64,000 bases of DNA, taken from Mobula hypostoma. Taxonomy: Eukaryota. The first letter of the stretch is position 1; every line of letters starts with the position of its first letter. Of this stretch, positions 3,586-41,297 are shown piece by piece. The position numbers and the translations under genes were made by a program. Location: contig NC_086097.1 of assembly GCF_963921235.1 (NCBI RefSeq), positions 21,020,001 through 21,084,000 of the forward strand. The letters run 5' to 3'. The notes below the pieces were generated by a model that was not told the origin of the DNA, made no database searches, and saw only the letters and a list, made by a program, of their open reading frames with translations.

Positions 3586-4657
3586 TAACAGGAAACCAAG
3601 TTTTCAAGTGGATCCGCAAAAAAAGTAGAGCTAATGAGAGCATTTTAAATGTTAAAGTATAATGTTATTGTAAAATATCTAAGAAATGGTGTTTAATCTC
3701 CTTTGCTTAAATATCTGCTGAATTTTGTTGTTCACTGACTCCCATTCTTTGACAAATTTTTCATAAACAGTAGCGTATTTTCATGTGTTTAAGGAACAAT
3801 GTGCTGTATCTCTAAATAAATAAATCAAATCAAATAAACTGTTTCCGTGCTGTCATTCTTATATGGTTAAATAAAATTGGCTATGTAACAGAAATAAGTG
3901 ATGCTGCAGATTGTAACATTGAAACAGCAGGCTGTTGTACTCCCTGTCATCTGTTGCAGGAGCAATATCTCTCCCTCACTAGTGAGACAGAGAGCCTGTC
4001 TGAGATGTTGAAGTGTTGAGACGGACTGTTATTTTTGATGGACTCTAGACCATGGTCTTTAGGGGGCTTTGCAGTTGCCTGCATGCTGGGTGGTGGGGAT
4101 TGACGCTTTTGCTGTGGCAAGTGGGGGGAGGGTTGATGCTTGTGTGTGCGAGGGGGAGCTCTACTGTTTTACTGAGTTTCATTCTTTTCTTCTGTTTTGT
4201 GGATGCCTGTGAGGAATATGTATTTCAGGTTGTAAACTATACGTTTGTTGTTTAGAGTCAACATGGAGTAGGCCCTTCTGGCCCTTCGAGCCACTCTGCC
4301 CAGCAATCCCCCAGTTTAATCCTAGCCTAATCACGGGACAATTTGCAACGACCAACTAACCGGCCAACAGCGTACGCCTTTTGGAACATGGGAGGAAACC
4401 GGAGCACCCGGAGGAATGCCGCACAGAATGTACAATCTCCTTACAGGCAGCGTCAGGAATTGAACCCATGTCGCTAGTACTGTAAAGCGTTGTGTTCGCC
4501 ACTATGCTACCATGCTACCCTATCTCTGGTATCAAATTGAACCACTGAAATGTAAGCAAAATATGCTGGAAAAACTTCACAGCTCAGGTAGATACTCATT
4601 AGTTGTCTGTGAGAAGACCTCTTCAGAATCACAATCGTGTTTATTATCACTAACATG

Positions 4658-5170
4658 CGCTCAGTAGCCATTTCATTTGGACACCATTAAAACCCAGTGT
4701 GGCCTTCTGCTGCTGGGGCTCATTCACTTCAAGATTGGACACGTTGTGCATTCAGAGATGTCCTTCTGCAACCACTGTCATAACACATGGTTATCTCAGT
4801 TACTGTAACCTTCCTGTCAACTTGAACCAGTATGGTCATTCTCCTCTGACCTCTCTCATTAACAAGACATTTTTACTCAGAAAACTGCCACTCACTGTTT
4901 CTGCACCATTCACGTAAACTCTAGAGACTGTTGCGCGTGAAATACCCAAAATCTGAGATACCCAAATCACCCTGTCTGGCACCAACAATTATTCTATGGT
5001 CAAAGTCGCTTGAATCATATTTCTTCCCCATTCTGGTGTTTGGTCTGAACAACAACTCAACCTCTTGACCACGTCTGCATGCTTTTATGCATTGAGTTGC
5101 TGCCACATGATTGGCTGATTCGATATTTACATTAATGAGCAGGTGTACCTACTGAAGTGTCCACTGAGAA
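4658..5170 (-). mobile_element. Internally deleted Tc1-type DNA transposon
   Basis: TIRs CGCTCAGTAGCCATTTCATTTGGACACC / GGTGTACCTACTGAAGTGTCCACTGAG, right end followed by TA. The internal frame MGKKYDSSDFDHRIIVGARQGDLGISD resembles the Tc1 transposase N-terminal HTH. Inserted into a LINE 3' tail. Confidence 0.75.
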
Positions 5171-5767
5171 TATGTCATGAAATTTGCTGCTTTACAGAAG
5201 CAGTACAGTGCAATAAATAAAATATATCATCAATTATAATAAGAAGAATATGTAAAGAATTCAATTAGCAGTGCAAAAAGCTAGTGAGGTAGAATTCATG
5301 GGTTCATCGTCCATACAGAAATGTGAAGGTGGAGTTGAAGAAGTTGTTCCTAAAATGTTGAGTGCGTGTCTTCAGGCTCCTGTACCTCCTCTCTGATGGC
5401 AGTAATGAGAAGAGGGCGTGTCCTGGGTAGTGGTCCTTTGGAGCATTGCCTGTTGAAGATGGCCTTGATACACAAACCAAAAGCCACGGATGAACCAGGG
5501 GATTCACAGACAGCTGAGGGCTGGATCTGTGGCATTCAAGACCAGTGATCCGGAACTATACAAGAAGTCCAAGTATAACCTAAGGAAGGTTATTTTAAGA
5601 GTGAAGAAACGATTCCTGTTGAAGTTAGAGACAGAACTGGATGCACGTCAGCTCTGGCAGAGTTTTCAGGACATTACTTCTTCTGAGGTGAAACCTATCG
5701 TCATGAATGGCTGTGGTGCTGCACTCCCAGCTGGACTCAATGACCCTTATGCATGCTTTGAAAGGGA

Positions 5768-6290
5768 TTGAATGCTCCCAATGGCATGAACCTGAAATAG
5801 CCTCTGACAACCAAGTGCAGTCCCTGGCCTTTGTTTTTGGCTCAGCTACAAAGCCCGGCAGAACCATTTCTCCTGACAGGAGAAGGGGCAAAGGCAGGAT
5901 ACTGGCACCTTGAAACCAGTCACTTTGGGTAGAAGGGGCTTATCAGCTGGTTGGCAGCTCATCTAGCAGAAGGAAAACTCTGATCGCAAACCTCCTCAGC
6001 CTTGCATGGGACTCATGGGCTTCAGATCCAATCCCCGAGGGGAAAATCCAGACCAGGTGTCCCTAAAACAGTCCCACGTTGAGTTCAACACTGACTGGTG
6101 ATTCCTGCAGTGTTGCTGGTGCCAAACTGTATCAGTCTTTGCCCTTACTTTGGGTTCATCAGATGAATGGAGAGCGGGAGTTTCCTGCATGGGCAACAGC
6201 TTGCTCTCCTTATTGTACTGCCCTAGCTTGCATATTTAGACAGCTAGAATGCATCATCCATGTTTGACTGTGACTGACGAAGGCTTCACG
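5768..6290 (+). mobile_element. ~520 bp non-coding, non-autonomous retroposon nested in the LINE (family uncertain, possibly Vingi- or RTE-derived)
   Basis: Interrupts the LINE precisely, flanked by direct repeat GAAAGGGA at 5760-5767 and 6291-6298; no convincing ORF. Confidence 0.6.
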
Positions 6291-7380
6291 GAAAGGGAGA
6301 ATAAAACTACACCTGTTCAAATCCTTGTATTACCTGGTGACCTTGTGACCTCTGTCTCAGAGGCCAACATCAGAACTTCATTCAAGAGGGTGAACCCTCA
6401 CAAGGCCTCAGGCCCTGTGATGGTGTACCTGGTGGGAGCTGAGAACCTGTGCCAACCAACAGGTGGGAGTGTTCGAGGACATCTTCAATCTCTCACTGCA
6501 GCATTTGGAGGTTCTTACCTGCTTCAGGATGGCAACAATCGTACCAGTGCCCAAGAAGAGCAGGGTGAGCTGCCTCAATGACTATCACCCAGTGGCACTC
6601 ACATCTACTGTGATGAAGAGCTTTGAGAGATTGGTCATGGTTAGAATTAACTCCTATCTAAGCAAGGGCCTGCACCCACTGCAATTTGCCTATCACCACA
6701 ACAGGTCGACAGTAGACGCAATCTCACTGGCTCTCCACTCAGCTTTGAAACACTTGAACAGTATAAATACCTATGTCAGGCTGCTGTTTATTGATTACAA
6801 CTCAGTGTTCAACATCATCATACCCTCAGTGTTAATCAACAAGCACCACAACCTGGGCCTCTGTACCTCCCTTGCATCTGGATCCCGAACTTCCTCACCG
6901 TGATGCCACAGTCAGTGCAGACTGGAAATACCATCTCCCCCTCATTGACAATCAACACTGGTGCAAGTCGATGATGCATCCCATTGCTCTACCCTCTCTC
7001 TAAACCCATGACTGTGTGGCTAGAGATGGCTTAAACACCATCTATAAATTTGCTGATGTCAAATTTGTTGGCAGTGAGATCGATCAGCTGGTTGAATGGT
7101 AGCACAACATCAACCTTATACTCCACATCAGTAAGACCAAGGATTTGATTATGGAGGTCAGGAAGGGGAGGTTGCGGGAACACGCATCAGTCCTCATCAA
7201 GTGATTAGCAATGGAACGGGAGAGCGGTTTCACACTCCTGGGTGTCAACATCTCTGAAGGTCTATCCTGGGCCCAACATATTGATGCTATTACGGAGAAG
7301 GCATGACAGTGGCTAAGTTTCATTAGGAGTTTGAAGAGTTTGAGTATGTCACCAAAGACACTCACAAATTTCTAACTGGT

Positions 7381-7966
7381 TGCACAGGACCTGGTATGGA
7401 GGGGCCACTGCACAGGACCTGGTATGGAGGGGCCACTGCACGGGACCTGGTATGGAGGGGCCACTGCACGGGACCTGGTATGGAGGGACCACTGCACAGG
7501 ACCTGGTGACCTGGTATGGAGGGGCCACTGCACGGGACCTGGTATGGAGGGGCCACTGCACAGGACCTGGTATGGAGGGGCCACTGCACGGGACCTGGTA
7601 TGGAGGGGCCACTGCACGGGACCTGGTATGGAGGGACCACTGCACAGGACCTGGTGACCTGGTATGGAGGGGCCACTGCACGGGACCTGGTATGGAGGGG
7701 CCACTGCACGGGACCTGGTATGGAGGGGCCACTGCACAGGACCTGGTATGGAGGGGCCACTGCATGGGATCTGGTATGGAGGGGCCACTGCACAGGCCCT
7801 GGTATGGAGGGGCCACTGCACGGGATCTGGTATGGAGGGACCGCTGTACGGGACCTGGTATGGAGGGGCCACTGCATGGGATCTGGTATGGAGGGGCCAC
7901 TGCATGGGATCTGGTATGGAGGGGCCACTGCATGGGATCTGGTATGGAGGGGCCACTGCACAGGAC
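7381..7966. repeat. 28-bp minisatellite, about 20 copies, unit TGCAC(A/G)GGACCTGGTATGGAGGGGCCAC
   Basis: Head-to-tail tandem copies; two identical variant blocks with an 8-bp GACCTGGT duplication lie 148 bp apart (7500 and 7648). Confidence 0.97.
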
Positions 7967-8330
7967 TGGAAAAAGCTGCAGGAAGTTGCAAACTCAGACA
8001 TCTCCAACGTGGGCACTGGCCACCGCAGCATCAAGGATGTCCTCGAGAGGTAATGCCTCAAAAAGGCGGCAGTCATCAAGGACGCCCATCACCCAGAACA
8101 TTCCCTCTTCTCATTGCTACCATCAAGAACGAGGTCTGAAGATACACATTCAGCATTCTAGGAACAGCTTCTTCTCTTCTGCCATCAGATTCAGGAATGA
8201 ACAATGAACACATATACGCTACCTCACTGTGATTTGCTCACTTTTTGCACGACTTATCTAATTTATTTGTGTATATATATATATATATATATATATAGTT
8301 CTCTCTCCGTCTATATATATATATATATAT

Positions 8331-10650
8331 ATGCCATACTAGATCTAGTACTAGGTAATGAACCGGGTCAGGTCACAGATCTCTCAGTGGGTGAGCATCT
8401 GGGGGACAGTGACCACCGCTCCCTGGCCTTTATTATTATCATGGAAAAGGATAGAATCAGAGAGGACAGGAAAATTTTTAATTGGGGAAAGGCAAATTAT
8501 GAGGCTATAAGGCTAGAACTTGCGGGTATGAATTGGGATGATGTTTTTGCAGGGAAATGTACTATGGACATGCGGTCGACGTTTAGAGATCTCTTGCGGG
8601 ATGTAAGGGATAAATTTGTCTCGGTGAGGAAGATAAAGAATGGTAGGGTGAAGGAACTATGGGTGATAAGTGAGGTGGAAAATCTAGTCAGGTGGAAGAA
8701 GGCAGCATACATGAGGTTTAGGAAGCAAGGATGAGATGGGTCTATTGAGGAATATAGGGAAGCAAGAAAGGAGCTTAAGAAGGGGCTGAGAAGAGCAAGA
8801 AGGAGGTATGAGAAGGCGTTGGCGAGTAGGGTAAAGGAAAACCCCAAGGCATTCTTCAATTATGTGAAGAACAAAAGGATGACAGGAGTGAAAGTAGGAC
8901 CGATTAGAGATAAAGGTGGGAAGATGTGCCTGGAGGCTGTGGAAGTGAGCGAGGTCCTCAATGAATACTTCTCTTGGGTATTCACCAATGAGAGGGAACT
9001 TGATGGTGAGGACAATATGAGTGAGGTTGATGTTCTGGAGCTTGTTGATATTAAGGGAGAAGAGGTGTTGGAGTTGTTAAAATACATTAGGATGGATAAG
9101 TCCCTGGGGCCTGACGGAATATACCCCAGGCTACTCCACGAGGCGAGGAAAGAGATTGCTGAGCCTCTGGCTAGGATCTTTATGTCCTCATTGTCCATGG
9201 GAATGGTACCGGAGGACTGGAGGGAGGCAAATGTCCCCTTGTTCAAAAAAGGTAGTAGGGATAGTCCGGGTAGTTATAGACCAGTGAGCCTTACGTCTGT
9301 GGTGGGAAAGCTGTTGGAAAAGATTCTTAGAGATAGGATCTCTGGGCACTTAGAGAATCATGGTCTGATCAGGGACAGTCAGCATGGATTTGTGAAAGGC
9401 AGATTGTGTCTAACAAGCCTGATAGAGTTCTTTGAGGAGGTGACCAGGCATATAGATGAGGGTAGTGCAGTGGATGTGATCTACATGGATTTTAGTAAGG
9501 CATTTGACAAGGTTCCACATGGTAGGCTTATTCAGAAAGTCAGAAAGCATGGGATCCAGGGAAGTTTGGCCAGGTGGATTCAGAATTGGCTTGCCTGCAG
9601 AAGGCAGAGGGTCATGGTGGAGGGAGTACATTCAGATTGGAGGGTTATGACTAGTGGTGTCCCACAAGGATCGGTTCTGGGACCTCTACTTTTCATGATT
9701 TTTATTAACGATCTGGATGTGGGGGTAGAAGGGTGGGTTGGCAAGTTTGCAGATGAGTCAAAGGTTGGTGGTGTTGTAGATAGTGCAGAGGATTGTCGAA
9801 GATTGCAGAAAGACTATGATGGGTTGCAAAAGTGGGCTGAAAAGTGGCAGATGGAGTTCAGCCCGGAGAAGTGTGAGGTGGTACATTTTGGAAGGACAAA
9901 CTCCAAGGCAGAGTACAAAGTAAATGACAGGATACTTGGTAGTGTGGAGGAGCAGAGGGATCTGGGGGTACATGTCTACAGATCCCTGAAAGTTGCTTCA
10001 CAGGTAGATAGGGTAGTTAAGGAAGCTTATGGGGTGTTAGCGTTCATAAATCGAGGGATAGAGTTTAAGAGTCGCGAGGTAATGATGCAGCTCTATAAAA
10101 CTCTGGTTAGGCCACACTTGGAGTATTGTGTCCAGTTCTGGTCACCTCACTATAGGAAGGTTGTGGAAGCATTGGAAATGGTACAGAGGAGATTTACCAG
10201 GATGCTGCCTGGTTTAGAGAGTATGGATTATGATCAGAGATTAAGGGAGCTAGGGCTTCACTCTTTGGAGAGAAGGATGATGAGAGGAGACATGATAGAG
10301 CTATACAAGATATTAGGAGGAATAGATAGAGTGGATAGCCAGCGCCTCTTCCCCAGGGCACCACTGCTCAATACAAGAGGACATGGCTTTAAGGTAAGGG
10401 GTAGGAAGTTCAAGGGGGATATTAGAGGAAGGTTTTTTACTCAGAGAGTGGTTGGTGCATGGAATGCACTGCCTGAGTCAGTGGCGGAGGCAGATACACT
10501 AGTGAAGTTTAAAAGACTACTAGGCAGGTATATGGAGGAATTTAAGGTGGGGGCTTATATGGGATGCAGGGTTTGAGGGTCAGCACAACAATATGGGCCG
10601 AAGGGCCTGTACCGTGCTGTACTATTCTATGTTCTACATGTTCTATGTTC
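8331..10650 (+). mobile_element. Young 5'-truncated CR1 LINE inserted in a (TA)n tract
   Basis: End of endonuclease (SDH motif), RT domain, CR1 C-terminus (TRGHGFK..WNALP) and (TTCTATG)n tail at ~10625-10650; (TA)n on both sides. Confidence 0.95.
8819..10576 (+). pseudogene. CR1 ORF2 reverse transcriptase remnant (585 aa open frame)
   Basis: [21 protein letters not shown] and [10 protein letters not shown] motifs. The catalytic FADD reads FADE, there is an in-frame stop upstream at ~8732, and the endonuclease is truncated. Confidence 0.9.
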
Positions 10651-16970: not shown

Positions 16971-17631
16971 CATGTGGTAGAGTCTAGAAGAATGGGAAGG
17001 GACCTCACTGAAAGGTATAAAATTCATTTTGGTTGTTGGCAGCATAGATTGGATGAATTTTCACCTGGATCGGGTGTCAAGAATCGGGGGTTAAGATTCT
17101 AAATCAATGATCAGAATCGGGTTTATTATTGCTGACATATGTCATGAAATTTGTTCTGTTGTGGCAGCAGTACAGTGCAGGACATTAAAAATTACTATAA
17201 GTTACAGTAAGAAATATTTAAAAAATAAGTAATGCAAAAAGAGCAAAATGGTGAGGTAGTTTTCATGGGTTCGTGGACCGTTCAGAAATCTGATGGTGGA
17301 GGGGAAGAAGCTGTTCTGAAACTGTTTAGTGTGTGTCTCATGCTCCTGTACCTCGTCCCTGATGGTAGTAATGAGGAGAAGTGATGTGCTGGATGGTGAG
17401 GGCCTTAATGATGAACGCTGTCTTCTTGAGGCACCGCCTCGTAAAGGTGGACTTAATGTACCCGTGCTAGAGTTGGCTGAGCTTACAGCCCTCTGCGGTT
17501 TTTGCTGATCCTGCTCCATGCCCATGCTATTCAGGACAGAGGTGAGAAGAAATTTCTTCACCCTATGTATCTGCCCACTGTGGCCTTCCAGGCTTAGGGC
17601 AGGACGTTGGAACTGAGGTATAAGATTAGCT

Positions 17632-17883
17632 ACATACATCAAAGTTGCTGGTGAACACAGCAGGCCAAGCAGCATCTATAGGAAGAGGCGCAGTCGATGT
17701 TTCAGGCCGAGACCCTTCATCAGGACTAATCCCTTACTCACTCTTCCTTCAGTTAGTCCTGATGAAGGGTCTCGGCCTGAAACGTCGACTGCGCCTCTTC
17801 CTATAGATGCTGCTTGGCCAGCTGCGTTCACCAGCAACTTTGATGTATGTTGCTTGAATTTCCAGCATCTGCAGAATTCCTGT
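17632..17883. mobile_element. Young Penelope-like inverted pseudo-LTR insertion (98-bp arms, 23-nt spacer) with 13-bp TSD
   Basis: Arms 17632-17729 and 17753-17850 are reverse complements with 3 mismatches by eye; TATAAGATTAGCT at 17619-17631 and 17884-17896. Confidence 0.92.
17755..17790 (+). ncRNA. Minimal type I hammerhead ribozyme motif (Penelope type)
   Basis: AGTC-CTGATGA-AGG GTCTCGG CCT-GAAA-CG-TC-GACT. Stem I is AGTC/GACT, the core is CUGAUGA, stem II is AGG/CCT, then GAAA, palindromic ACGT in place of stem III, and a GUC cleavage triplet ending at 17786. Confidence 0.85.
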
Positions 17884-22582: not shown

Positions 22583-24995
22583 TCCTTGCGGGAAGGTTTG
22601 CTAGTGCTGCTCTGGGGGGTTTAAACTAGATTTGCAGGGGGAGGGGAACCAGAGTGTTAGAGCAGATAGTGAGGTGGAGAAGGATAAAGGTCATGCGAGA
22701 ACTACAAGTATAACTGCAAAGACTGCAAGTATATCTCTAACATATAAAGAGGCTTTGAGGAAAGAGAAGCAGAACAAACGGTGTAAAGACAGTAAGGTAG
22801 AAAGGCTAAAGTGCGTGTACTTCAATGCAAGAAGCATCAGGAACAAAGGTGATGAACTGAGAGCTTGGATACATACATGGAATTTGATGTAGTGGTCATT
22901 ACAGAGACTTGGCTGGCACCAGGGCAGGAATGGATTCTCAATATTCCTGGATTTCAGTGCTTTAAAAGGGTTAGAGAGGGGGGGAAAGAGGAGGAGGGTG
23001 GCATTACTGGTCAGGGATACTATTTCAGCCACAGAAAGGGTAGGTAATGTAGCAGGATCCTCTTTTGAGTCAATATGGGTGGAAGTCAAGAACAGGAAGG
23101 GAGCAGTTACTCTATTGGGAGTATTCTATAGGCCCCCTGCTAGCAGCAGAGATACCAAGGAGCAGATTGGGAGGCAGATTTTGGAAAGATGCAAAAATAA
23201 CAGGGTTGTGATCATGGGTGACTTTAACTTCCCTAATATTGACTGGCACCTGATTAGTTCCAATGGTTTAGACGGGGCAGAGTTTGTTAAGTGTGTCCAG
23301 GACGGATTCCTGTCACAGTATGTGGACAGGCCGACTAGGGGGAATGCCACACTAGATCTAGTATTCGGTAACGAACTGGGTCAGGTCACAGATCTCTCAG
23401 TGGGTGAGCATCTGGGGGACAGTGACCACCGCTCCCGGGCCTTTAACATTATCATGGAAAAGGATAGAATCAGAGAGGACAGGAAAATTTTTAATTGGGG
23501 AAGGGCAAATTATGAAGCTATAAGTCCAGAACTTGCGAGTGTGAATTGGGATGATGTTTTTGCAGGGAAATGTACTATGGACATGTGGTCGACGCTTAAG
23601 GATCTCTTGCAGGATGTTAGGGATAAATTTGTCCCGGTGAGGAAGATAAAGAATGGTAGGGTGAAGGAACCGTGGGTGACAAGTGAGGTGGAAAATCTAG
23701 TCAGGTGGAAGAAGGCAGCATACATGAGGTTTAGGAAGCAAGGATCAGATGGGTCTATTGAGGAATATAGGGTAGCAAGAAAAGAGCTTAAGAAGGGGCT
23801 GAGAAGAGCAAAAAGGGGGCATGAGAAGGCCTTGATGAGTAGGGTAAAGGAAAACCCCAAGGCATTCTTTAATTATGTGAAGAACAAAAGGATGACAGGA
23901 GTGAAGGTAGGACCGATTAGAGATAAAGGTGGGAAGATGTGCCTAGAGGCTGTGGAAGTGAGCAAGGTCCTCAATGAATACTTCTCTTGGGTACTCACCA
24001 GTGAGAGGGAACTTGATGATGGTGAGGACAATACGAGTGAGGCTGATGTTCTGGAGCATGTTGATATTAAGGGAGAGGAGGTGTTGGAGTTGTTAAAATA
24101 CATTAGGACGGATAAGTCCCCGGGGCCTGACGGAATATACCCCAGGCTGCTCCACGAGGTGAGGGAAGAGATTGCTGAGCCTCTGGCTAGGATCTTTATA
24201 TCCTCGTTGTCCACGGGAATGGTACCGGAGGACTGGCGGGAGGTGAATGTTGTCCCCTTGTTGAAAAAGGGTAGTGGGGATAGTTCGGGTAATTATAGAC
24301 CAGTGAGCCTTACATCTGTGGTGGGAAAGCTGTTGGAAAAGATTCTTGGAGATAGGATCTATGGGCATTTAGAGAATCATGGTCTGATCAGGGACAGTCA
24401 GCATGGCTTTGTGAAGGGCAGATCATGTCTAACAAGCCTGATAGAATTCTTTGAGGAGGTGACCAGGCATATAGGTGAGGGTAGTGCAGTGGATGTGATC
24501 TACATGGATTTTAGTAAAGCATTTGACAAGGTTCCACACAGTAGGCTTATTCAGAAAGTCAGAAGGCATGGGATCCAGGGAAGTTTGGCCAGGTGGATTC
24601 AGGATTGGCTTGCCTGCAGAAGGCAGAGGGTCATGGTGGAGGGAGTACATTCAGATTGGAGGGTTATGACTAGTGGTGTCCCACAAGGATCGGTTCTGGG
24701 ACCTCTACTTTTCGTGATTTTTATTAACAACCTGGATGAGGGGGTAGAAGGGTGGGTTGGCAAGTTTACAGATGACACAAAGGTTGGTGGTGTTGTGGAT
24801 AGTGTAGAGGATTGTTGAAAATTGCAGAGAGACATTGATAAGATGCAGAAATGGGCTGAGAAGTGGCAGATGGAGTTCAACCCAGAGAAGTGTGAGGTGA
24901 TACACCTTTGAAGGACAAACTCCAAGGCAGAGTAGAAAGTAAATGGCAGGATACTTAGAAGTGTGGAGGAGCAGAGGGATCTGGGGGTACATGTC
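22583..24995 (+). mobile_element. Young CR1 LINE of the same family as 8331-10650: end of ORF1, APE endonuclease and RT, 3'-truncated
   Basis: [29 protein letters not shown] and RT motifs in ORF 22998-24818; FTDD motif then a stop; breaks abruptly at 24995 against a Penelope element. Confidence 0.95.
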
Positions 24996-25908
24996 AACAC
25001 TCACAACACGCTGGAGGAACTCAGCAGGTCGGGCAGCATCCGTGGAAAAGATCGGTCGATGTTTCGGGCCGGAACTCCTCGTCAGGACTGTAGAGGGAAG
25101 GGGCAGAGGCCCTATAAAGAAGGTGAGGGGAGGGTGGGAAGGAGAAGGCTGGTAGGTTCCAGGTGAAAAACCAGTAATGGGAAAGATAATGGTGTGGGGG
25201 AGGGGAGGCAGGGAGGTGATAGGCAGGAAAGGTGAAGAAAGAATAGGGGAAAACACAATGGGTAGTAGAAGGAGGTGGAACCATGAGGGAGGTGATAGGC
25301 AGCTGGAGGAGGGGGCAGAGTGAAGTAGGGATAGGGGAAGGGAGGGGGAGGGAATTACCGGAAGTTGGAGAATTCTATGCTCATACCAAGGGGTTGGAGA
25401 CTACCTAGACGGTATATGAGGTGTTGCTCCTCCAACCTGAGTTTAGCCTCATTGTGGCAGTAAAGGAGGCCATGTATGGACATATCTGAATGGGAATGGG
25501 AAGCAGAGTTGAGGTGGGTGGCTACTGGGAGATCCTGTCTGTTTTGGCGGATGGAGTGGAGGTGCTCGACGAAGCGGTCCCCCAATCTGCGTCGGGTTTC
25601 ACCGATGTAGAGGAGGCCGCACCGGGAGCACCGGATGCAATAGATGACCCCAACAGACTCACAAGTGAAGTGTTGCCTCACCTGGAAGGACTGTTTGGGG
25701 CCCTGAATGGTGGCAAGAGAGGAGGTGTAGGGACAGGTGTAGCACTTGCGCTTACAGGGATAAGTGCCAGGTGGGAGATCTATGGGGAGGGACGTGTGGA
25801 CCAGGGAGTTGCAGGGGGACCGATCCCTGCGGAAAGCGGAGAGGGGTGGAAAGGGAAAGATGTGCTTAGTGGTGGGGTCCTGTTGAAGGTGGCGGAAGTT
25901 GCGGGAGG
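24996..25908 (-). mobile_element. Penelope-like element 3' part with GIY-YIG endonuclease coding region and hammerhead-bearing pseudo-LTR (25053-25090)
   Basis: Frame 25355-25908: GTYPCKRKCYTC..VIYCIRCSRCGLLYIGETRRRLGDRFVEH..RLEEQHLIYRLGSLQPLGMS; CAGTCCTGACGAGGAGTTCCGGCCCGAAACATCGAC on the minus strand. Confidence 0.92.
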
Positions 25909-30240: not shown

Positions 30241-32008
30241 AACAGTCTCTAACAGACCAACATTAGCTAAAGAGCTTAGTTCCGAAAGAGGTACAAGAAC
30301 AGAGATTTCCAGGAGCAGATGGATGTAAATTGTTGTTGCAGGATAGGTTACAAAAGTTGTCAAAAAAACACATGCTGTGATTTTATGGGATAGGCTGCAA
30401 AAGCAAGAATGTCAGCACGAACCTTCACAAGACAGGAATATGGTCACAAAAATAATATTTCCTTTTAGGAAAGATGAGAAGACCTGTTACATCAAGGAGA
30501 GAGGCTATTTTTGCCATCAAGTCAATGTTTAGTGAGTCTAACCCCTCTGTCCCCTCTCTGTGGCCATAATTCTTTCTTTCTGGTGCCTATCCAGCTCTTG
30601 TTGAACCCTGTGATTGAATCTGCCCCCACTGCTACCCCCAATCACTAAGCCACGCACAGTGTGAACATTTTTTCCTCGTGATCCGTTTAGTTCTTTTGTT
30701 AAATGTCTTCAGTCTCTGTCTCCTGGTTCACGGTTGTTTTGCCAATGGGCAGTATTTCTTTTAACCTGATCTGTTGTGGTTTTCAAAGTCTCTATCAGAT
30801 ACTCATTAATCTTCTCTGATCCAAGGAGAAGAACACCGGTCTCTGATCCCCCTCATAACCAAAGGTTAGCAGACTAGATGTAGAGAAGATGGCTCCCCTG
30901 GCTAAAGAGACTAGCACGAAGGGCTGGGATACTCGGCGCAGAGAAACACCTGCACCTGGAGGGTGTGAATCTTGGAAGTTGTAAATTCTGGAAGCCAGGT
31001 GATGAATTTATTCCAAACAGAGAAGCATAGAGGTCAGTCTGGCATGTGAAGGGGAGGTAGATGAGTTTCGAAAGTTTGAAAGATCAACTCTTACCAATGT
31101 TTATCCATGCACCATAGAAACCATTCTGTCTGGATGCGTAACGGCTTGGTATGGCAGCTGCTCTGCACATAACAGCAGAGAGTTGTGAACACAGCTCAGC
31201 ACAAGACAGGAATAACCCTCCCCTCTAAGGACTGACTATACTTCTCACTGCCTCAGTAATGCACCCAGCATAATCAAATACCCCCACCCACTATGAACAC
31301 ACTATTTTCTCCCCTCTCTCATTGGATACAAGATACAGAAACACCTACTACCAGGGTCAAAGCCAGCTTGCACCCCACATTTATAAGACTATTAAACATT
31401 CACAATCTGTTATGATCTTGCACCTTGTTATTTACCTGCAGTGCACTTTCCCTGGAGCTGTTAGATTGCATTCTGCATTGTTACTGTTTTACTTGCTTTA
31501 CCTCAATGCACTGCGTGATATTTTGATCTGAACAGTCTGTGAGATGAGCTGTATGTTGGTGTGTGTGACAACAATAAACCAATACCAATATCAAATGCAG
31601 CCTGTGGCGAACTGGCACAGGAGAGGAGGTGAGGCCTGGAGCAGATCAACCATGATCTCGTTGTCTTGAGGAGCTGGTGGTCTACTTCCACTCCTACTTT
31701 CTTGCGTTCTTCTGTTCTTTAGATTTCTGATAAAGGAATCAAGGTTTATGGGGATATTGCTAAGATAGGGCACTAAGGTAGAATATCGGCCACAATCGTA
31801 ATGAGGGGACTGAGCTGGAAATCCTGATGACCTATTCCTTCTACTCATCCTTATTTTCCAATGTTCCCTCATCCATGGAGTCTGTGTTGCCCTTAAGGCA
31901 TTTGTTTGACTTCGTTGGGTCTACACTTTAAATGATTTGTTTGTAACTATTCTCTAGTTAAAGTTAAAGGTTGATAATTAAGTTACAGTATAACAAAGGT
32001 AAATTCAT

Positions 32009-32302
32009 TGTCTATGGTATATCGCAGCGTATGATGACGTCACTTCCAGTTTCGCCGTGTCTTATGTGTAACCTCCGGTTCGGAGAAGGTGTGAAGGTGG
32101 GTGCCATGCGTGCAGCAAGATCGTGAAGAACTCCGTTTCTACCCTTGAAGAAACATTATAGAAGCAACACCTTTTCACCATACGACGTTAATGTGGAAGA
32201 GTGAACAGTAAATGGTTAACCTTACTACGACTCTGTCTTCATTGGTTCCGGTTTAACTTGGTGTTTGGTCAGAGTTTCAACACACTGCACGAGAACACTA
32301 CA
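32009..32302. mobile_element. Possible solo LTR
   Basis: CpG-containing ~290 bp block bounded by TG..CA with TGACGTCACTTCC inside AT-rich DNA; no convincing TSD found. Confidence 0.3.
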
Positions 32303-34537
32303 GAGTCATTTCCACTAATGTCCTGTACACTCTCCCAAAGCCTTCATATCTTTTCTAAATACACCGACAGTGGTGAGACCAGGGTTACGTTTCGATTTCC
32401 TTGCTCTTGTCTTTCCTTCATGCCTCCATTGATGAAGCCCAGGACTCCACATGGTTTTACAACTTGCTGGTCCAGATTCTATGAACTGTGCACATTTATT
32501 TCCTGAATCTCTCAGTTCTTTTAGCCCTTCTAGAACTTTTCTCATTGGCTTACATTGGCTTTCCTCAGTTTTTCAATCAAGAAGCAATATTTTGCATTTC
32601 ACAGCACTAACCTTCACCTGTCTCCTAGTCACCCCATCCATCAAACTGTCTGTAAGTCCTTGAAGTCAGTTACTATCATTCTCAGAAATAACTAATTTCC
32701 AAGTTACATGTCATCAGCAAATATGGAAAATGTCCAGATTCACAGAATACAAAGAAATGTCAGCACTTCTGTGATATTTTAAGGCCTGGCCTTTGCACTT
32801 ACTACCACTTGTGAACATCATGATAAAGAAACAGGTTAGGGACAGATCTCTGCGGCAGATGGAAAACTACAAAACGAATCAATGCCATATGGTCTTGAAA
32901 AACCCCAGATAATTAACTGTTAATATTTTCTTTCAATAGCTCAATTTTAACATTTGCCTTTCCATTTATACAACATTAGATTTATTTTTATATCAGTTCC
33001 CTCTGAGATCCGCACAACAGGACCACTCAGAGAATGACATTCATCTCCTTCCAGGTTCTGAGCTCAAAACTGACACCTTCTCATCACCTAAAGCTATATT
33101 TAAACTATTATTTTTTTCATTCTTTATTCTCCTTCTTCTGTATTCTCCATCCTTTGATTTTGTTTTCTTTGCTGCTTTTATGATCTTCTGGCTTTTGAAG
33201 GCAAATGAATCCTGGGATTTAATGCCAGTTATGGTTAAATGTCATTACAACTTTTTGATGTGGGTCTGCTGCAAGATATCACAGTTTTGCGTTATCCCAT
33301 TTTCCAGGGAAATTATGTCTGGAATATAAATGGGAGAAGGGAAAAAATGCAGTCGGGAGATACTACTGGGATGAAAGATATTGAGAGGGAAATATAAAAC
33401 AGTAACATTGTGTAATTTCTTTTAACTCTGTTATTTTATCTCGTGCTGACCAAGAATGTGCAACTTAAAGCCACAGACAGCATTTTCTGAGTCTTTCAAA
33501 GCTAAGCCCACCCTAAAATATTAACTTTAATCTGCCAGAGTTGCTGTGTTCTGTACAGAACTCAAAACTGAGGTTATGTCTGCCTACTTAGCTGAATGTG
33601 GAAGATCTTATCACCTCTATTTGTGGTACATTTCAGGTAAATGACTTTTTTGAATTGATAAATTAGTAAAGTGGTTTATTGTTGTCACATGTTCTGAGGT
33701 ACAGTGAAAAACTTGTCTTGCACACTGTCCATACAGATCACTCCCACATTGGCATTGAGGTAGACCAAAGTAAAACAGTAACAGCATGCAGAGTAGAGTG
33801 TTACAGCAACTGAGACACCCTGAACGTGCCCTGTTCTCACTGCTGCCATCAGGAAGAAGGTACGAGAGCCTTAGGACTCAGGCTACCAGTTTCAGGAATA
33901 GCTACTACCCCTCAGCCATCAGGCACCTGAACCAAAGGGAATAACTTCACTTTACTTCACTTGCCTCATCGTTGAAATGCTCCCACAACCTATGGACTCA
34001 CCTTCAAGGACTCTTCATCTCATGTTCTCAATATTATTGCTTATTTATTTTTTATTATTATGATTTCTTCTTTTTGTATTTGCACACTTTGTTGTCTTCT
34101 ACACTCTGGTTGAATGCCCCATTTGGGCACTCTTCCATTGGTTCTATTAAGGCCATTACTCTATAGATTATTGTGTATGCCCACATGAAAATGAATCTCA
34201 GGGTTGTATATGGTGACATATATGTATTCTGATAATAACATTTACTTTGAACTTTGAAAGTGCAGTACAGACAGGCAGTAAGTGCAAGGCCATAACGAGG
34301 TAGACTGTGGGGTCATGATTCCATCTTGTCATGCTAGGGGGACTGTTCAATAGTCTTACAATCACAGGATAGATAGGGAAGTTTTTCATCAGAACTGTGA
34401 AAAGTTAGGTGAAACACACCGTCAGGAAAGTGTTGGAAGCAGATATGATAGCAATGCTTAAGAGCCATTGAGACGGGCACATGAAGAAAAGAGAACTCAG
34501 GATCTTTGGAGAGGAATAGACAGCTGACATTGAATAG

Positions 34538-34671
34538 GGTCCTGATGAAGGGTCTCAGCCCAAAATGTCTACTATTCCTTTCCACAGATACTGTCTGACC
34601 TGTTGAGTTCCTCTATCATTTTGTGTGTGTGTTACTCTGGATTTCCAGCATCTGCAGAATCTCTTGTGTTT
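34538..34671 (+). mobile_element. Penelope-like pseudo-LTR with decayed hammerhead motif
   Basis: GTCCTGATGAAGGGTCTCAGCCCAAAATGTCTAC followed by the family body and tail TTTCCAGCATCTGCAGAATCTCTTGTGTTT. Confidence 0.8.
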
Positions 34672-35595
34672 AAGCAGGCAGATGGGATTAGTTTGGATTC
34701 GTATCACGGTCAGTTTGGATATTGTGTGCTGAAGGGTCTGTTCCGATACTGTACTGTTCCATGTTCCACACTGATCGTGATCAGATCTCGGTTATTGGAA
34801 GCTTGCTGCTTTCAGATCGATGGCTATTTTTCTTGTTTTGCCACAGTAGCTACACTTCAGTAGTAAATATATAAAACTGGATGGGATATTAGCCAGAGAG
34901 GCAACTGGTCCATGCTCCATTTGAACCTTCTCCATGATCTCCATATCTAAATCTATCACCATATCCCTAAGGGTTGGAAAAAGTTGTGGCAAGTTGTGAA
35001 CTCTGCCAACCCCGGCATGGGCACCAGCCTCCCCAGCATCCCGGACAGCATCAAAAGGCAATGCCTCACAAAGGCTGCATCCATGATTAAGGACCCTCAT
35101 CACTCAGGACATGCCCTCTTCTCATTGCTACCATCAGGGAGTACAGGAGCCTGAAGCCAAACACTCAACAGTTCAGTAACAGCCTCTTCTCCTAGGCCAT
35201 CAGATTTCTGCCAGAAAACTAAAATTTTCGCAACATAGAGTATGCCAGTGACATTAAACCTGACTCTGATTCTAAGGTACCCTTTGCTCCCGTAGGGTTT
35301 ACGTTTGGCTTGTCCACCCTTCCATGAATTGCTATTTGCTGCATGCACTCCATACAACAGAAAGGCAAGCCTTTTGCCACCCCTCAGGCATCCATTGTAT
35401 AATTGACATTCAGAATCTGATTGCTGGGGAAAACACTCCCTCTTCGTTATACCACCATGGACTGTCGGAGGTGCATGATTGGCTTGCAGTCATTTCACAA
35501 GCTACCCTATCTATTGTGTTTATTTAAAGATGCAGCACATTATTAAGTCGTTTCAGACCAAAGAGCCAGTGCTGCTTAATTACACCCTTGTGACC

Positions 35596-35663
35596 AATTA
35601 ACCTACTGTATTAATTAACTTACTGTATTAATTAACTTACAGTATTAACTAACCTACTGTATT
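35596..35663. repeat. 17-bp tandem repeat x4 inside a SINE
   Basis: Unit AATTAACCTACTGTATT with minor variants. Confidence 0.85.
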
Positions 35664-36333
35664 AACCGTACATCTTTGGAATGTGGGAGGAAACCCATGT
35701 TGTCACGAGGGAATGTTCAAACCCTTTACAGACAGCGGTGGGGTTGAACTGGGATTGCTTGCACTGTAATATCGGTATGCGAACAGCTACGCGGCTGTAC
35801 CACGCTGAACTAATCTCCTGTTGTCAGCAGCGTATCCAGTGAAAACAATAAACAAACGAGATTAACGTGTTCCCACTCTCACAGTGGCCATAGTTTGGAG
35901 TGTTGAGTTCCAGTTTATGCCAGTATGGTTTTGTGTCTGCTTATGCCTACCTATTGAATATTGAAAGGCCTAGATAGAGTGGATGTGGAGGGGATGTTTT
36001 CTACAGTGGGAAAATCTAGGGCCAGAGGGCACAGCCTCAGAATGGAGGGTCGACCCTTTAGAATAGAGATGAGGAGGAATTTCTTTAGTGTGTGGGTGGT
36101 GAATCTGTGGAATTCATTGCCACAGATGGATCTGGAGGCCAAAGTATATTTAAAATGAAGGTATATAGGTGTTACAGGGAGAAGGCAGGAGAATGGGGCT
36201 GAGAGGTATAATTAATCAGCCATGATGGAATGGTGGAGCAGACTCAATAGCCTGAATGGCCTAACTCTACTCCTATGTCTTACGCTCTTGAGGGTGGAAA
36301 CACAAATATTGTCCAACATGCATCTTCTACTGG

Positions 36334-36384
36334 AACTCCCCCATGGACGGTTCCAAACCCGGCTGCAAAAGGAGGAGGGTTGGG
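36334..36384 (+). ncRNA. Twister ribozyme relic (3' cleavage-product form) at the 5' end of an RTE-derived element
   Basis: AA-CTCC-CCC-ATG-GACG-GTTCCAAACC-CGG-CTGCAAAA-GGAG-GAGGG-TTGGG follows the P1-type twister layout (P2 CTCC/GGAG, L4 resembling GUCCCAAGCC, GAGGG) with several substitutions. Confidence 0.65.
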
Positions 36385-36514
36385 CACGGGGCTAGCAACC
36401 TCATCCCGTAAATACTAGAGCTACAGAAATGCTCCAAAGCCCTCATCCCTGGGAAAGGAAAGAGAAGGTGTGGGCTACACTTGGGGACAACTTGAAAGAC
36501 TGTCCCAGGTCAGA
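36334..36514 (+). mobile_element. Short bipartite RTE derivative (5' UTR joined to ORF C-terminus)
   Basis: GGGTTGGGCACGGGGCTAGCAACCTCATCCCGTAAA RTE 5' UTR motif, then a segment encoding GYTWGQLERL like RTE ORF C-termini. Confidence 0.6.
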
Positions 36515-37770
36515 TGCGTTAATGTGTACGGCACATGGGAGGTGGCTGGTTCACTTTCTGTCTGGTGGACTTCTCATGGCTCCAATTCAGGCCGTCGTGT
36601 AAAGCCAGAATCCTGAGATAGAGCATTCACAACTCAGTTGTTACATCATCCAGTTTTAGGGCCTCAGTGTCAGATTGTATTTGCTGTTCCTTTTAATCTG
36701 ACTCTACTACCTCAAAAACAATATATCATTTGACAATGATAAGTACTTCCCGAAAGCAACAGTGAGTGCAGGGGAGATTTACCAATATGCTGCCTGGATG
36801 CCATGGTGGCGTAGTGGTTAGCACGATGCTATCACAGCTTGGGGCTTTGGGGTTTGGAGTTCAATTCCAACATCCTCCGTAAGGAGTCTGTACATCCTCC
36901 CCGTTGTCTCCAGGTGTTCTGGTTTCCTCCCACAGTCCAAAGATGTACCAGTTAATAGGTTAATTGGTCATTGTAAATTATCCCGTGATTAGGCTGGGGT
37001 TAAAATGGGGGGTTTCTGGGTGGCCAGAAGGGCCTATTCGCATTGTAACCCTATAAATAAATAAATGCAAGAGCACGTTCTTTGAGGGTGGGTTGAGAGT
37101 TTCCTAGACATGGATGAAAGAAAAATAGAGGACTATGGGCTATGTAAGAGGAAAGGGTTAGATTGATTGTAGAGTAGGTGAAAAAATTTGAATCATTGGC
37201 TGAAGAGCCTGTTCTGTGTTCTACGTTTGATGAAAGGTCAAAAGAGGAAGTGAAATTGGTCACAGGTTCTGGTTTCGGTAGTGGGTGGTGCAGGCTGTGG
37301 AGAGCTCTGGAAGCATCAGAGGAAGATAGGGCAAGTAGTGAGGAGTAAGAAGGAGGATTTGAAAGCTGGCTGTAATAAGATGGTGAAGACAGAGCCCAGT
37401 CTAGCTCCGAATGCCCCCCCTCCCCCAACATCTTCTTACAGCCACCATCCAAGCCAAGGTGTGAACAAAGGCTCTTTGGATTGTGAGAATCCCACAACCC
37501 AGTGTGGTCAGCAAGGAAAGAAAAGGGAAAGCTGAAGAAATTTTGAAATCATTAAAAGTAAACTTTACCGGTCGGTAAATATTCTGCTCTGCTGGAGTCA
37601 ATGGGTGCAATTGGCTTGTTGGGCTCCTTCTTGTGCCTTGGAGCGTTGACATTAACGTGTGGTTCCTTAGAGTGTTTGCTTCTCACACCTACAATTCAAT
37701 AATGGAGAGTCAGCATAATAAAAAGTGGTCAAACAAATAAAGTATCTATACTCACACATACGTGTGCACA

Positions 37771-37823
<53 letters not shown>

Positions 37824-38809
37824 GAACTGGATGGTCATGTGGGTTCCGAGTGAGGATTTGGGGTGCTGGCAACAGGTTACATGACCAGGCACGTGCACAG
37901 CCAATGGAATATAATGTAGGAAATGTGAGGTCATCTTCTTTGGCAGACAAGACGGAAAACCGGAGTAATTTTTCAAGAGTGTGAGACTGAAGGGTGTTGG
38001 TGTGTAGAGGAACATGGTTTCCTTACACAAATCCGTGGAACTTAATGAACAGGTACAATACTCCATTAGGAAGATAAATGGCATGTTGGGTTTTGTTGCA
38101 AGAGGATTTAATACAAGGGTGAACATACATTACTGCAGGTATACAGGGGTGCGAGTAACAACACACCTGGAATATTATTTGTAGGTTTGGTCTCCTTACT
38201 GAAGGTAAGAAGTACTTGTTTCACTGGACTTATTCCTGGAGAGAGATCAAGCAGGCAGGACTCACGTTGTCTTGAATTTAGAAAGAATGCGAGGTAACTG
38301 CAGATTATTACGAGATTTGACAGGGTGAATCCAGGAATGATCTATCTCTTGATCCCAGTGTCCAGAACAAAAGGCAAAAGTCTTAAAATATGGGATCAGT
38401 CATTCAAAACTGTGATGAGAAATGTGAGGCATGTTGCTTCTCGAAAGCTATTGGTATCATTAAGTATGCCTACCACCTGGCCATTGCCTTTTCTTTCTCT
38501 TTGACCTTTGAGGAGAAGATACAGGAGCCTGAACACACCGATGAATTTGGGCTTGAGTTTGGTTGTGTGGGCTTTTAAACTCCTGTATGTTCTCTCAGAA
38601 GGTATATAAAATAATGAGGGATCTAGATAGGGTGAATGCATACAGGCTTTTTCCACTGAGGGTTGAACTGAGGTCAAAGGTTTAGAGTGAAAGACAAAAT
38701 ATTTAGGGGGAATACAAGGGGAAACTTCTCCACAGAGGGTGACGTGAATGTGGAATGAGCAGCCAGTGGAACTTCAAATGTGACATTTAAGAGGGTTTGG
38801 ATAAGTACA

Positions 38810-39097
38810 GTGTGGGCATGTGGTCAAGTGGTTAAGGCATTGGACTAGCGACCTGAAGGTCGTGAGTTCGAACCCCAGCCAAGGCAGCATGTTGTGTCCT
38901 TGAGCAAGGCACTTAATCACACATTGCTCTACGACAACACTGGTGCCAAGCTGTGTGGGTCCTAATGTCCTTCCCTTGGACAACATCGGTGTCGTGGAGA
39001 GAGGAGACTTGCGGCATGGGCAACTGCTGGTCTTCCATACAATCTTGCCCAGGCCTGAAGACTTTCCAGGCGCAGATCCATGGTCTCACAAGAGTAA
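38810..39097 (+). mobile_element. tRNA-derived SINE, copy 1, 12-bp TSD
   Basis: A box TGGTCAAGTGG, B box AGTTCGAACCC, GTCCTTGAGCAAGGCACTTAA core; TGGATAAGTACA at 38798-38809 and 39098-39109. Confidence 0.9.
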
Positions 39098-39770
39098 TGG
39101 ATAAGTACATGGGTGGGAGGAGTATGGAGGGCTGTGGTCCAGGTGCAGCTCAATGGGACTAGGCAGAAGATCAAGTTGCCATAGACTAGGTAGGTCAAAG
39201 GGCCTGTTTCATCGCTTGCTCTTTGTGATATCCACTCCTCTTTCCAGGGTGTGGAGCCTTTCCCTGTTCCACCATTGGGTCAATTTAAATGCCAGCTCAG
39301 ACAGACTGAAAAAACAGGGTGTCCATTGGGACGGGCCGTTCTCAGTGATGGTCATCTCCATGGTGCTGAGGTTAATGAAGACAGCCCCGGCTGCTGTGCT
39401 CCGTGCCCACTAATATGATGAACTGATAAGCGAAGCTTCGAGCCTATTCCAGTCTGCTCTGGGGTGGGATCTGAAGGCTCAGATTTAGTTCGGATTGTTG
39501 TTGTTCACTTCAATTGCTTGCATGATTTGTATTTTTTTTCTTTCTCTTGCGTGTTGAGAGTTGATCTTTTTTTTTTGAAATTGGGTTCTTTTTGGGTTTC
39601 TTGCTTTGTGGCTATCTGTGAGCAAGGAAATCTCAAGGTTGTATAATTTATATATTCTTTGATAATAAATGTACCTGATTTGATTTTCCATGCTGTAGTA
39701 CTCTATGAATCTAAGGTAGAAGAGAGCAGAGGGAATGGCCAGAGTGGTAGTATCCTTGACAATATGGGCG

Positions 39771-40403
39771 GGAGGAGAAGATGGCAGTGCGATGCAGTGC
39801 GCGCAGCTCTCCAGTGAAATGATATTGTATCTGTTAAATAGGGGCCGTGGACAATTTTGATTTGATGGAGACAGACATGAAAGCACAGAGGAACATCTGG
39901 AGAAATTTCTGAAATGCAAATTTGTTGTTGCTGCTACTGTGTGATTGAGAATCTCCGGAGGGAAGGCCCCAAAATCCCCGGCTTTGCCTGCTGCTGGCGA
40001 CCGAGGTTGAGGTCGAATCGTTCGGATAGAGATGGCGCTCGGTACTTGGTGTCAGAGGGCTGATCAGAGCTCGAAGTTTTCGGACGACTCAGAGTCGGAC
40101 TGTGGTCGGGCATGGCAGGGAGAGTTGTCTTCCTTCTCCCGTCTGCGTGAGATGTGGGACTTTCGAGAGACTTTGAACTTTTTTACTGTGCCATGACCTG
40201 TTCTTCATCAAGTTATGGTATTGTTGCGCTGTTGTAACTATATGTTATAATTATGTGGTTTTGTTAGTTTTTCAGTCTTGGTCTGTCCTGTGTTTCTGTG
40301 ATATCACACCGGAGGAATATTGTATCATTTCTTAATGCATGCATTACTAAATGACAATAAAAGAGGACTGCGTGTCCTCATAATTTAATAATCTAATCTA
40401 ATC
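39771..40403 (+). mobile_element. ~620 bp CpG-rich non-autonomous retroposon, copy 3 (full length)
   Basis: Head GGAGGAGAAGATGGC, body homologous to copies 1 and 2, AATAAA and (TAATC)n tail. Confidence 0.85.
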
Positions 40404-40887
40404 TTATTTGTTATACTGTAATTCACAAGAACAATTTATGAACATATTCAAAGTTCAAAAATTTAAAGTAACTTTATTATTAAAGTACATATTTATCACC
40501 ATGTACAATCCTGATATTCATTTTCTTTCAGGCATTCACAGTAGAACAAAGACATACAATAGAATCAATGAAAAACTGCACACAAAGACTGACAAACAAC
40601 CAACGTGCAAAAGAAGACAAGCTGTGCAAATAAAAAATAAGTAATTAAATAATACTGAGGATATGAATTGTGGAGTCATTGAAAGTGAGCACATGGGTTG
40701 AGTTGATGATCAGTTCAGTGAGTGAAGTTATCTACCATGGTTCACGAGCCTGATTGCTAAAGGGTGATAACTGTTCCTGAACCTGTTGGTGTGGGACATA
40801 AGACTGCTGTCCCTCCTTCCTATTGGAAAATGATAATCAGAGCACCCAATATCTTTAAAGCCACCACCTTCAAAACTCTAGGACCTG

Positions 40888-40954
40888 CAGTACCGTGCAA
40901 AAGTCTTAGGCACATAGATATAGCTAGGGTGCCTAAGACTTTTGCCCAGTACTT
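40888..40954. mobile_element. Tiny Tc1-type MITE, copy 1
   Basis: TIRs CAGTACCGTGCAAAAGTCTTAGGCAC / GTGCCTAAGACTTTTGCCCAGTACT separated by ~15 nt. Confidence 0.75.
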
Positions 40955-40991
40955 CAGTAATTTGATGTATTGCACTGTACTGCTGCCACAA

Positions 40992-41297
40992 TGTGGGCAC
41001 GTGGCCAAAGTGGTTAAGGCATTCGACTAGCGATCTGAAGGTCGCTAGTTCAAGCCCCAGCCGAGGCAGCGTGTTGTGTCCTTGAGCAAGGCACTTAATC
41101 ACACAGTATTCTGTGATGACACTGGTGCCAAGCTGTATGGGTCCTAATGCCCTTCCCTTGGACTACATCAGTGTCGTGGAGAGGGGAGACTTGCAGCATG
41201 GGCAACTGCCAGTCTTCCATACAACCTTGCCCAGGCCTGCGCCCTGGACAGTGAAGACTTTCCAGGCGCAGATCCATGGTCTCGCAAGACTAACAGA
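40992..41297 (+). mobile_element. tRNA-derived SINE, copy 2, 11-bp TSD
   Basis: Same family as 38810-39097; TGCTGCCACAA at 40981-40991 and 41298-41308. Confidence 0.9.

Follow-up and report, generated by a model that had tools for sequence, protein, structure and literature searches.

The window, by which we mean the whole 64,000-nucleotide (64-kb) stretch of Mobula hypostoma DNA that was analysed, contains at positions 36334-36514 of the forward strand a decayed, 3'-truncated copy of a non-autonomous element of ~190-290 bp (Table 1). This 181-base copy starts after a G at 36333 and is without the final ~60 nt and the repeat tail of its family. One of its frames encodes GYTWGQLERL, and the RTE 3' remnant that the initial annotation had recognised from this peptide was found again, with the frame at 36463-36514 and the same tail in the parent element described below. 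A twister relic had also been proposed to begin at 36334. When the 64-kb window was compared with Rfam, no match was obtained at the gathering score. In evalue mode, twister-P1 was the top match within 35800-37200 (36329-36383, 26 bits, E 0.0064; gathering score 67.2). Base pairing is kept in P2 (4/4), at 3/3 of the pairs tested in P4 and at 3/3 in T1, where one pair is a G.U, and the relic was confirmed. The predicted catalytic A and G are kept, and both T2 guanines are substituted, as had been read from the letters. No TSD above threshold was detected for this copy (the best candidate was an 8/10 match at 36570, score 4), and no second copy of the element was found within the window.

Table 1. 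Features of the element copy in the window
Feature	Positions	Strand	Basis
5' part of the copy	36334-36463	+	alignment to family references
3' RTE part of the copy	36463-36514	+	alignment to family references
Predicted twister core, 46 nt, type-P1 layout, no P3 helix	36334..36379	+	
First A, 3' of the predicted cut	36334	+	
P2	36336-39/36371-74	+	
T2, both pairs broken in this copy	36340-41/36357-58	+	
P4	36347-50/36359-62	+	
T1	36352-54/36377-79	+	
Predicted general-base G	36375	+	
G>C at the T2 5' guanine, Osa G13 equivalent	36340	+	
G>A at the L4 T2 guanine, Osa G30 equivalent	36357	+	
Conserved hairpin directly 3' of the core, then A-tract; 2 substitutions in this copy	36381..36408	+	
Remaining parent 5' UTR to the deletion junction; 10-nt deletion near 36428	36409..36463	+	
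RTE ORF 3' remnant (GYTWGQLERL), junction class 140/110	36463..36514	+	

Comparison of a 201-base probe with the genome (3.48 Gb, 200 contigs) gave 3,461 first-look candidates, of which 40 were scored. The 39 best other matches were 77-83% identical, and most began at query position 15, that is at 36334, the AA after the predicted cut at which the initial annotation had let the similarity start. The relatedness of the window copy to a genomic family is far beyond chance. We oriented 101 distinct copies from 127 fetched loci. Those left out were 2 duplicates, 4 members of other RTE families, 19 loci with the 3' end only and L109, whose head is interrupted. Exact 33-base cores occurred 7 times in the genome, cores with at most one mismatch (allowing CpG degeneracy) 620 times and hairpin matches with at most two mismatches 373 times; reversed controls gave 0 for both of the relaxed patterns. 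When the pattern counts were divided by the fraction of sampled copies matching each pattern (6/65; 3/36), a rough estimate of 4,500-6,700 heads resulted. The family was also present in contigs of four runs from two other organisms (23, 23, 39 and 22 contigs), which left the element at the same base and continued into unrelated flanks; thus, it is not confined to Mobula hypostoma. For 31500-41000 of the window, no RNA run was found among the sequencing runs. Among 98 copies, mean divergence from the consensus was 8.7% at non-CpG sites (a value that selection biases low) and 36% at CpG sites, and the window copy, with 7.9% non-CpG divergence, is typical in this respect. The family appears to be old and decayed, and by now extinct or nearly so.

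The 5' boundary was analyzed with three probe sets that did not contain the 5' end. The alignment started at consensus positions 1-4 in 46 of the 65 copies fetched in this way (22/29, 13/20 and 11/16) and outside these positions in the other 19, giving the pile-up at the first A that the initial annotation had looked for. Upstream of position 1, every base stayed at or below 43% among 77 full-head copies. T was present at position -1 in 33/77 copies against a background of 29.6% (p 0.009, uncorrected), which is weak given that 12 positions were examined. TSDs of 7-13 bp scored above threshold in 23 of the 61 copies having both ends, compared with 0-1 in 12 shuffled pairings, and the other 38 had none. 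Nineteen of the 23 TSDs ended at position -1 (offsets were mildly penalised in scoring), and an A directly followed the downstream TSD copy in 13/23, a weak signal as well (p 0.02).

The 41-aa tail peptide had 38 protein matches in the representative library and no homologue among longer proteins. One of the 38, P0007, combines an N-terminus resembling the 5' part of the element with a matching C-terminus. Searches with these proteins revealed L108, an element of ~3.0 kb with the same head (28.3 bits) and the same tail, whose APE- and RT-like segments are interrupted by stops and shifts. L109 is 73% identical to L108 over 3,074 columns, and both follow, in broken pieces, a 1018-aa RTE-type ORF; two L109 fragments on their own had no Pfam match. 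The nearest homologues of the parent are ~1,000-aa single-ORF APE+RT+DUF6451 proteins (PF03372, PF00078, PF20049). No intact parent was found among the best candidates in the genome, where the APE start is kept at up to 3 mismatches in only 26 places. We regard L108 as the decayed full-length parent of the short family. It is called an RTE from its domain layout, its Perere-3-like head and a C-terminal motif that we take to be RTE-type. Parent-type ends carry (CTAA)n tails.

The short element consists of the 5' ~140 nt of the parent joined to the 3' end of the parent and is without coding capacity. This bipartite structure, with 5' and 3' parts only, was present in 83 of the 101 copies (lengths mostly 188-286 nt), in keeping with the short non-autonomous RTE derivative that had been annotated. 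At least ~130 5' bases were kept in every bipartite copy except the outlier L036. Several junctions were recurrent (5' length/3' length): 146/109 in 17 copies, 221/73 in 12, 217/73 in 8, 142/116 in 7 and 140/110, which includes the window copy, in 6; these classes were grouped by eye, and their counts reflect the search and not genome frequencies. Of 29 copies in a junction-unbiased set, 21 were bipartite, and these had 14 distinct junctions when a tolerance of 3 bases was allowed. Because several junctions are common to many copies, internally deleted elements must have arisen repeatedly; we read this as deleted forms that were born many times, a few of which would then have been amplified. 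A classical Pol III SINE was considered and rejected: the head is the parent's own 5' end, no B box is present in the first 230 nt of the element, and there was no tRNA, 5S or 7SL match in Rfam.

It is possible that the short copies were instead made afresh from full-length parent RNA, either when the RT left the 3' end and jumped to the 5' region or through repair at insertion, in which case the twister would still set the 5' end and hot spots would explain the shared junctions. The many unique junctions, with 5' parts of ~130 to ~380 nt and 3' parts of ~40 to ~320 nt, are consistent with this, as are the internally deleted copies with unique junctions in a second RTE family (L117, L119) and a 7-nt repeat that adjoins the 221/217 junction in both parent ends and could guide recurrent deletion. 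However, exact junctions recur at unrelated loci with 0-1 nt of microhomology. For 28 distinct gapless junctions the mean microhomology was 0.79 base versus 0.75 at random, with no overall excess, and microhomology-driven junctions were therefore rejected. In addition, short derivatives outnumber heads continuing into APE more than 20-fold, and the 221/73 and 217/73 classes have in common a 12-nt deletion that is absent from long copies, together with mostly (GAA)n tails, an association that is partly selected since these classes were fetched by a probe carrying the deletion. The shared junctions, the class-linked deletion and the tails favour amplification from deleted source copies. Thus, fresh deletion is unlikely as the general origin of the family, and it probably explains the singleton junctions.

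The majority bases of the family form P2, T2, T1 and three P4 pairs, with A.G as the closing P4 pair, and keep the cleavage-site A and the general-base G, so that both pseudoknots are restored in the consensus, as the initial annotation had required. By our own criteria, all core pairs and key bases are kept in 12/101 copies, and L002, L036, L023 and L032 are natural copies with an intact core; the core contains four CpGs, and CpG decay accounts for most core losses in the other copies. Family positions 7, 8, 19, 20, 24 and 25 correspond to Osa-1-4 G13, C14, C25, C26, G30 and C31 with a constant offset of 6, a register inferred from residue names in PMC5113685 and PMC5408937. The covariance-model match that had been anticipated was found among 26 loci scanned with Rfam twister-P1: the best family copies scored 39.8 and 41.2 bits (E 2.3e-6), below the gathering score. 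This model (RF03160) expects P1 and P3, both of which are absent from the family, and its joining strand is 3 nt shorter. MFE folding gave no significant structure (z 0.13-1.06), a method that does not cover pseudoknots and is uninformative for a double pseudoknot. Judged by its consensus, the family has the structural features of a twister (P2, P4, T1, T2, key A and G) but neither reaches the Rfam threshold nor has a P1.

A metagenome scan yielded 112 loci with the same twister layout, 67 of them in the same 46-base spacing. APE-like coding sequence comes next at many of these loci, and within one family the flanks are unrelated from locus to locus. The twister core was without covariation in this set, in which the search pattern itself had fixed core bases. 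Among 52 distinct metagenome heads of 46 nt, an A at the closing P4 position was present in only 2, and both have a C at position 30, as in the Mobula family, and are followed by APE-like coding sequence. The core of one metagenome locus, L159, differs from that of the Mobula family at 1/46 positions, and an open APE frame follows, which suggests that the A.G P4 variant is natural.

These data bear on a different reading, according to which the twister-like head had lost its activity before, in this lineage, and transcription from an internal promoter starts at the sharp 5' end. The A.G at the base of P4, which is rare among the metagenome heads, the longer joining strand and the low Rfam scores would agree with it, and Pol II transcription of bipartite LINEs has been supposed (PMC5786205). 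However, the 5' end coincides to the nucleotide with the predicted cleavage base, TSDs abut it, and the B box is missing. P4 mismatches outside the apical pair are tolerated in twisters (PMC11662667), as is loss of P1 (PMC11662667, PMC5113685), and the two A-bearing metagenome heads resemble the Mobula family in C30 and in what follows them. An inactive head is, therefore, quite improbable.

The TSD has been proposed as the source of the P1 5' strand in Perere-3 (PMC8501958), and the initial annotation had likewise assumed a host-supplied strand. This part of it did not hold. Flanks giving at least 2 consecutive pairs with the putative P1 3' strand were found in 23/77 copies and, with shifted flanks, in 18-28; a host-supplied P1 was rejected since the flanks paired no better than shifted ones. 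A hairpin formed by family positions 48-58 with 66-75 occupies positions 48-51; of the four bases that drawings usually assign to the P1 3' strand, it uses three. In 13 RTE heads (12 metagenome loci, chosen by motif, 46-base spacing and presence of the hairpin, plus L024), two-sided changes were present in 6/10 hairpin pairs, which 0/500 shuffles reached, and slid registers gave 0-2. Pair 50-73, for example, is a G-C in 5 of the sequences and a U-A in another 5, and RNAalifold recovered the same hairpin. With most of the supposed P1 3' strand engaged in the covarying hairpin and no P1 pairing seen in the flanks, a host-supplied P1 would not be needed. In this the Mobula data argue against a TSD forming P1, as PMC8501958 proposes for Perere-3, and the hairpin offers a direct and cheap handle on the published model. 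P1 and the base preceding the cut have been reported to be dispensable or non-conserved (PMC5113685, PMC11662667, PMC5408937).

In the Osa-1-4 scan, G13 and G30 are among four positions where any substitution reduces activity below 0.2 (PMC5113685). According to PMC11662667, imperfections in P1, P2 and most of P4 are tolerated and the first pseudoknot is sensitive. As both T2 guanines are substituted at these intolerant positions, the window copy is almost surely dead, in agreement with what the initial annotation had concluded from the broken T2 pairs. That it is functional, either as an active ribozyme or as an exapted element, is hardly credible: the copy still has P2, P4, T1 and the predicted catalytic A and G, but the two least tolerant positions are changed, two PK1 imperfections lower mean cleavage from 0.76 to 0.36 (PMC11662667), the non-CpG divergence is close to the family mean, and the 3' end is gone. 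The copy seems to be a fossil, for which any function is not likely.

The reading that we prefer, with a probability of roughly 0.8, is that the window copy is a dead, short, internally deleted non-autonomous derivative (SIDE or bipartite LINE) of a Perere-3-like RTE. A source copy would be read through from a host promoter, and its 5' twister would cut before the first A, so that the 5' end of the freed RNA is fixed in any flanking context, as the boundary, the TSDs and the Perere-3 data suggest. A trans-acting RTE protein from the 3-kb parent would then recognise the retained 3' end, and target-primed reverse transcription would insert the copy, with the observed 7-13 bp TSD abutting the first A. 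Since the RNA is only ~250 nt, most copies would reach full length and retain the ribozyme. The distinct junctions show that the parent was internally deleted many times, and the shared junctions suggest that several deleted forms became self-amplifying source elements. Decay at the four core CpGs disabled most copies, and the window copy lost T2 by two further substitutions.

T-variant twisters head Perere-3, an element of the RTE clade, in Schistosoma mansoni (Liu et al. 2021, PMC8501958). Its layout as given in the initial annotation agrees with the first table of that paper (its Table 1) and with its supplement; the supplement lists similar heads in teleosts and snakes and gave no match to the Mobula family core or to the cartilaginous-fish names tried. 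The Mobula family has in common with Perere-3 the P2, T2, L4, T1 and following bases, the start at AA after the cut with an abutting TSD, short tandem 3' repeats including GTAA, and an RTE ORF downstream in the parent (PMC8501958). It differs from Perere-3 in the absence of a P3 helix and in the A.G closing P4 pair, and also in that most copies are ~250-bp internally deleted non-autonomous derivatives and that it is a decayed family of a 3.48-Gb, CpG-depleting animal genome. In Osa-1-4 (type P1, no P3/P5), P4 and L4 lie at the same distances from the cut (PMC5113685, PMC5408937), whereas the Mobula family has no fixed P1, a longer joining strand and the 3' hairpin.

The body of the element has other parallels. 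R2 SIDEs and R2/R1 hybrid SIDEs of Drosophila likewise join a ribozyme-bearing 5' end to a LINE 3' end, and they are freed from a host co-transcript and not transcribed by Pol III (Eickbush and Eickbush 2012, PMC3414825). However, they carry an HDV-like ribozyme, insert site-specifically into rDNA and are rare (PMC3414825), whereas in the Mobula family the ribozyme is a predicted twister, insertions are dispersed, copies number in the thousands, and there are several junction classes. Internally deleted 5' and 3' ends are also combined in the bipartite RTE LINEs Bov-A, RTESINE1/2, WALLSI3, MAR4_MD and hagfish derivatives, and such derivatives are called common for RTE (Kojima 2018, PMC5786205; Kojima 2020, PMC7245038). 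Retention of the extreme 5' end has been tied to self-cleaving ribozymes (PMC5786205); the ribozymes cited in these papers are HDV-like, and the word twister is absent from the main text of PMC5786205 and occurs 0 times in PMC7245038. RIME and NARTc of trypanosomatids are similarly short and internally deleted and keep the 5' ribozyme hallmark, but belong to the Ingi/L1Tc clade and have an HDV-like ribozyme (PMC5786205, PMC3414825). Thus, twister-headed RTEs and ribozyme-headed deleted LINEs are known separately, and their combination, a twister-headed non-autonomous RTE, was not found in the literature searched. Within that literature, the suggestion that the family is undescribed stands. By its sequence, the Mobula family would work like the Perere-3 T-variant placed on an R2-SIDE-like body.

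Why RTE, Ingi and R2 LINEs spawn bipartite derivatives is regarded as an open question (PMC5786205). We tentatively propose, at somewhat less than even odds, that twister-headed RTE SIDEs form a widespread and recurrent, promoter-less, SINE-like class, in which P1-free cutting would be independent of the insertion site, and the hairpin and A-tract would be a separate RTE module, for protein binding or 5'-end protection, that is kept with other ribozyme types as in the L107 family described below. If true, this would explain why bipartite derivatives of RTEs are frequent: a 5' ribozyme could free a promoter-less mini-element from any host transcript. With Perere-3 as the single case documented so far, the predicted role of twisters would also come to cover non-autonomous elements, present by the thousands in a large animal genome. 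Outside the Mobula genome, support comes from short, TSD-flanked elements on metagenome contigs, each known from a single contig. L209 is a twister-headed element of ~245 nt that has a remnant of the RTE C-terminus and is flanked by a repeat of 8 bases. In L172 (573 nt), 415 bases of the 5' end of a longer relative are joined to a short tail and (GAA)n, and the TSD matches at 13/13 positions. L154 is 380 nt long. A fourth single-contig case, L187, is a 107-base twister-headed insert with an 11/11 TSD, which comes near to a ribozyme-only retroposon.

Some metagenome loci deserve separate mention. Over 340-400 bases of 5' UTR and ORF start, L151, L134, L199 and L234 are 73-77% identical in nucleotide sequence to the Mobula parent, which would be compatible with horizontal transfer or slow evolution. 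Two sets of other twisters (L131, L138, L181, L183, L207, L215 and L227; L140, L144, L157, L192 and L222) have conserved upstream sequence. By pairing with the bases downstream, this sequence can close P1 completely or form a longer stem around it. These twisters are not followed by an RTE ORF, and their context is different and possibly non-LINE.

Other RTE families are present in the same genome. L107 (G000:C36:131599100-131602900, -), L117 and L119 represent a second, less decayed family, and L107 has a 1018-aa open frame; it was rejected as the parent because it belongs to this different family. L117 and L119 are internally deleted copies with unique junctions, and L122, internally deleted as well, represents a third RTE family, whose 5' end differs from the others. 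The heads of L107, L117, L119 and L122 matched no ribozyme family in Rfam; that of the L107 family presumably resembles HDV-like RTE ribozymes. Behind this non-twister head, the L107 family keeps a similar hairpin and A-tract, which suggests ribozyme swapping ahead of a conserved hairpin module. In L111 (G000:C36:137445060-137445860), a unit of ~63 bases that starts where the core ends and includes the hairpin occurs at least 3 times in tandem before the ORF start, and L052 and L069 have doubled heads.

The window contains additional repeats. Self-alignment revealed a tandem array with a period of ~56 bases at 7381-7969. Two 1.65-kb LINE fragments, at 8331-9980 and 23344-24999, are 93% identical to each other, have distant RT similarity to RTE proteins and appear to represent a younger LINE family. 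Finally, a near-palindrome of ~230 bases at 17628-17854 is 89% self-complementary and consists of inverted repeat copies.
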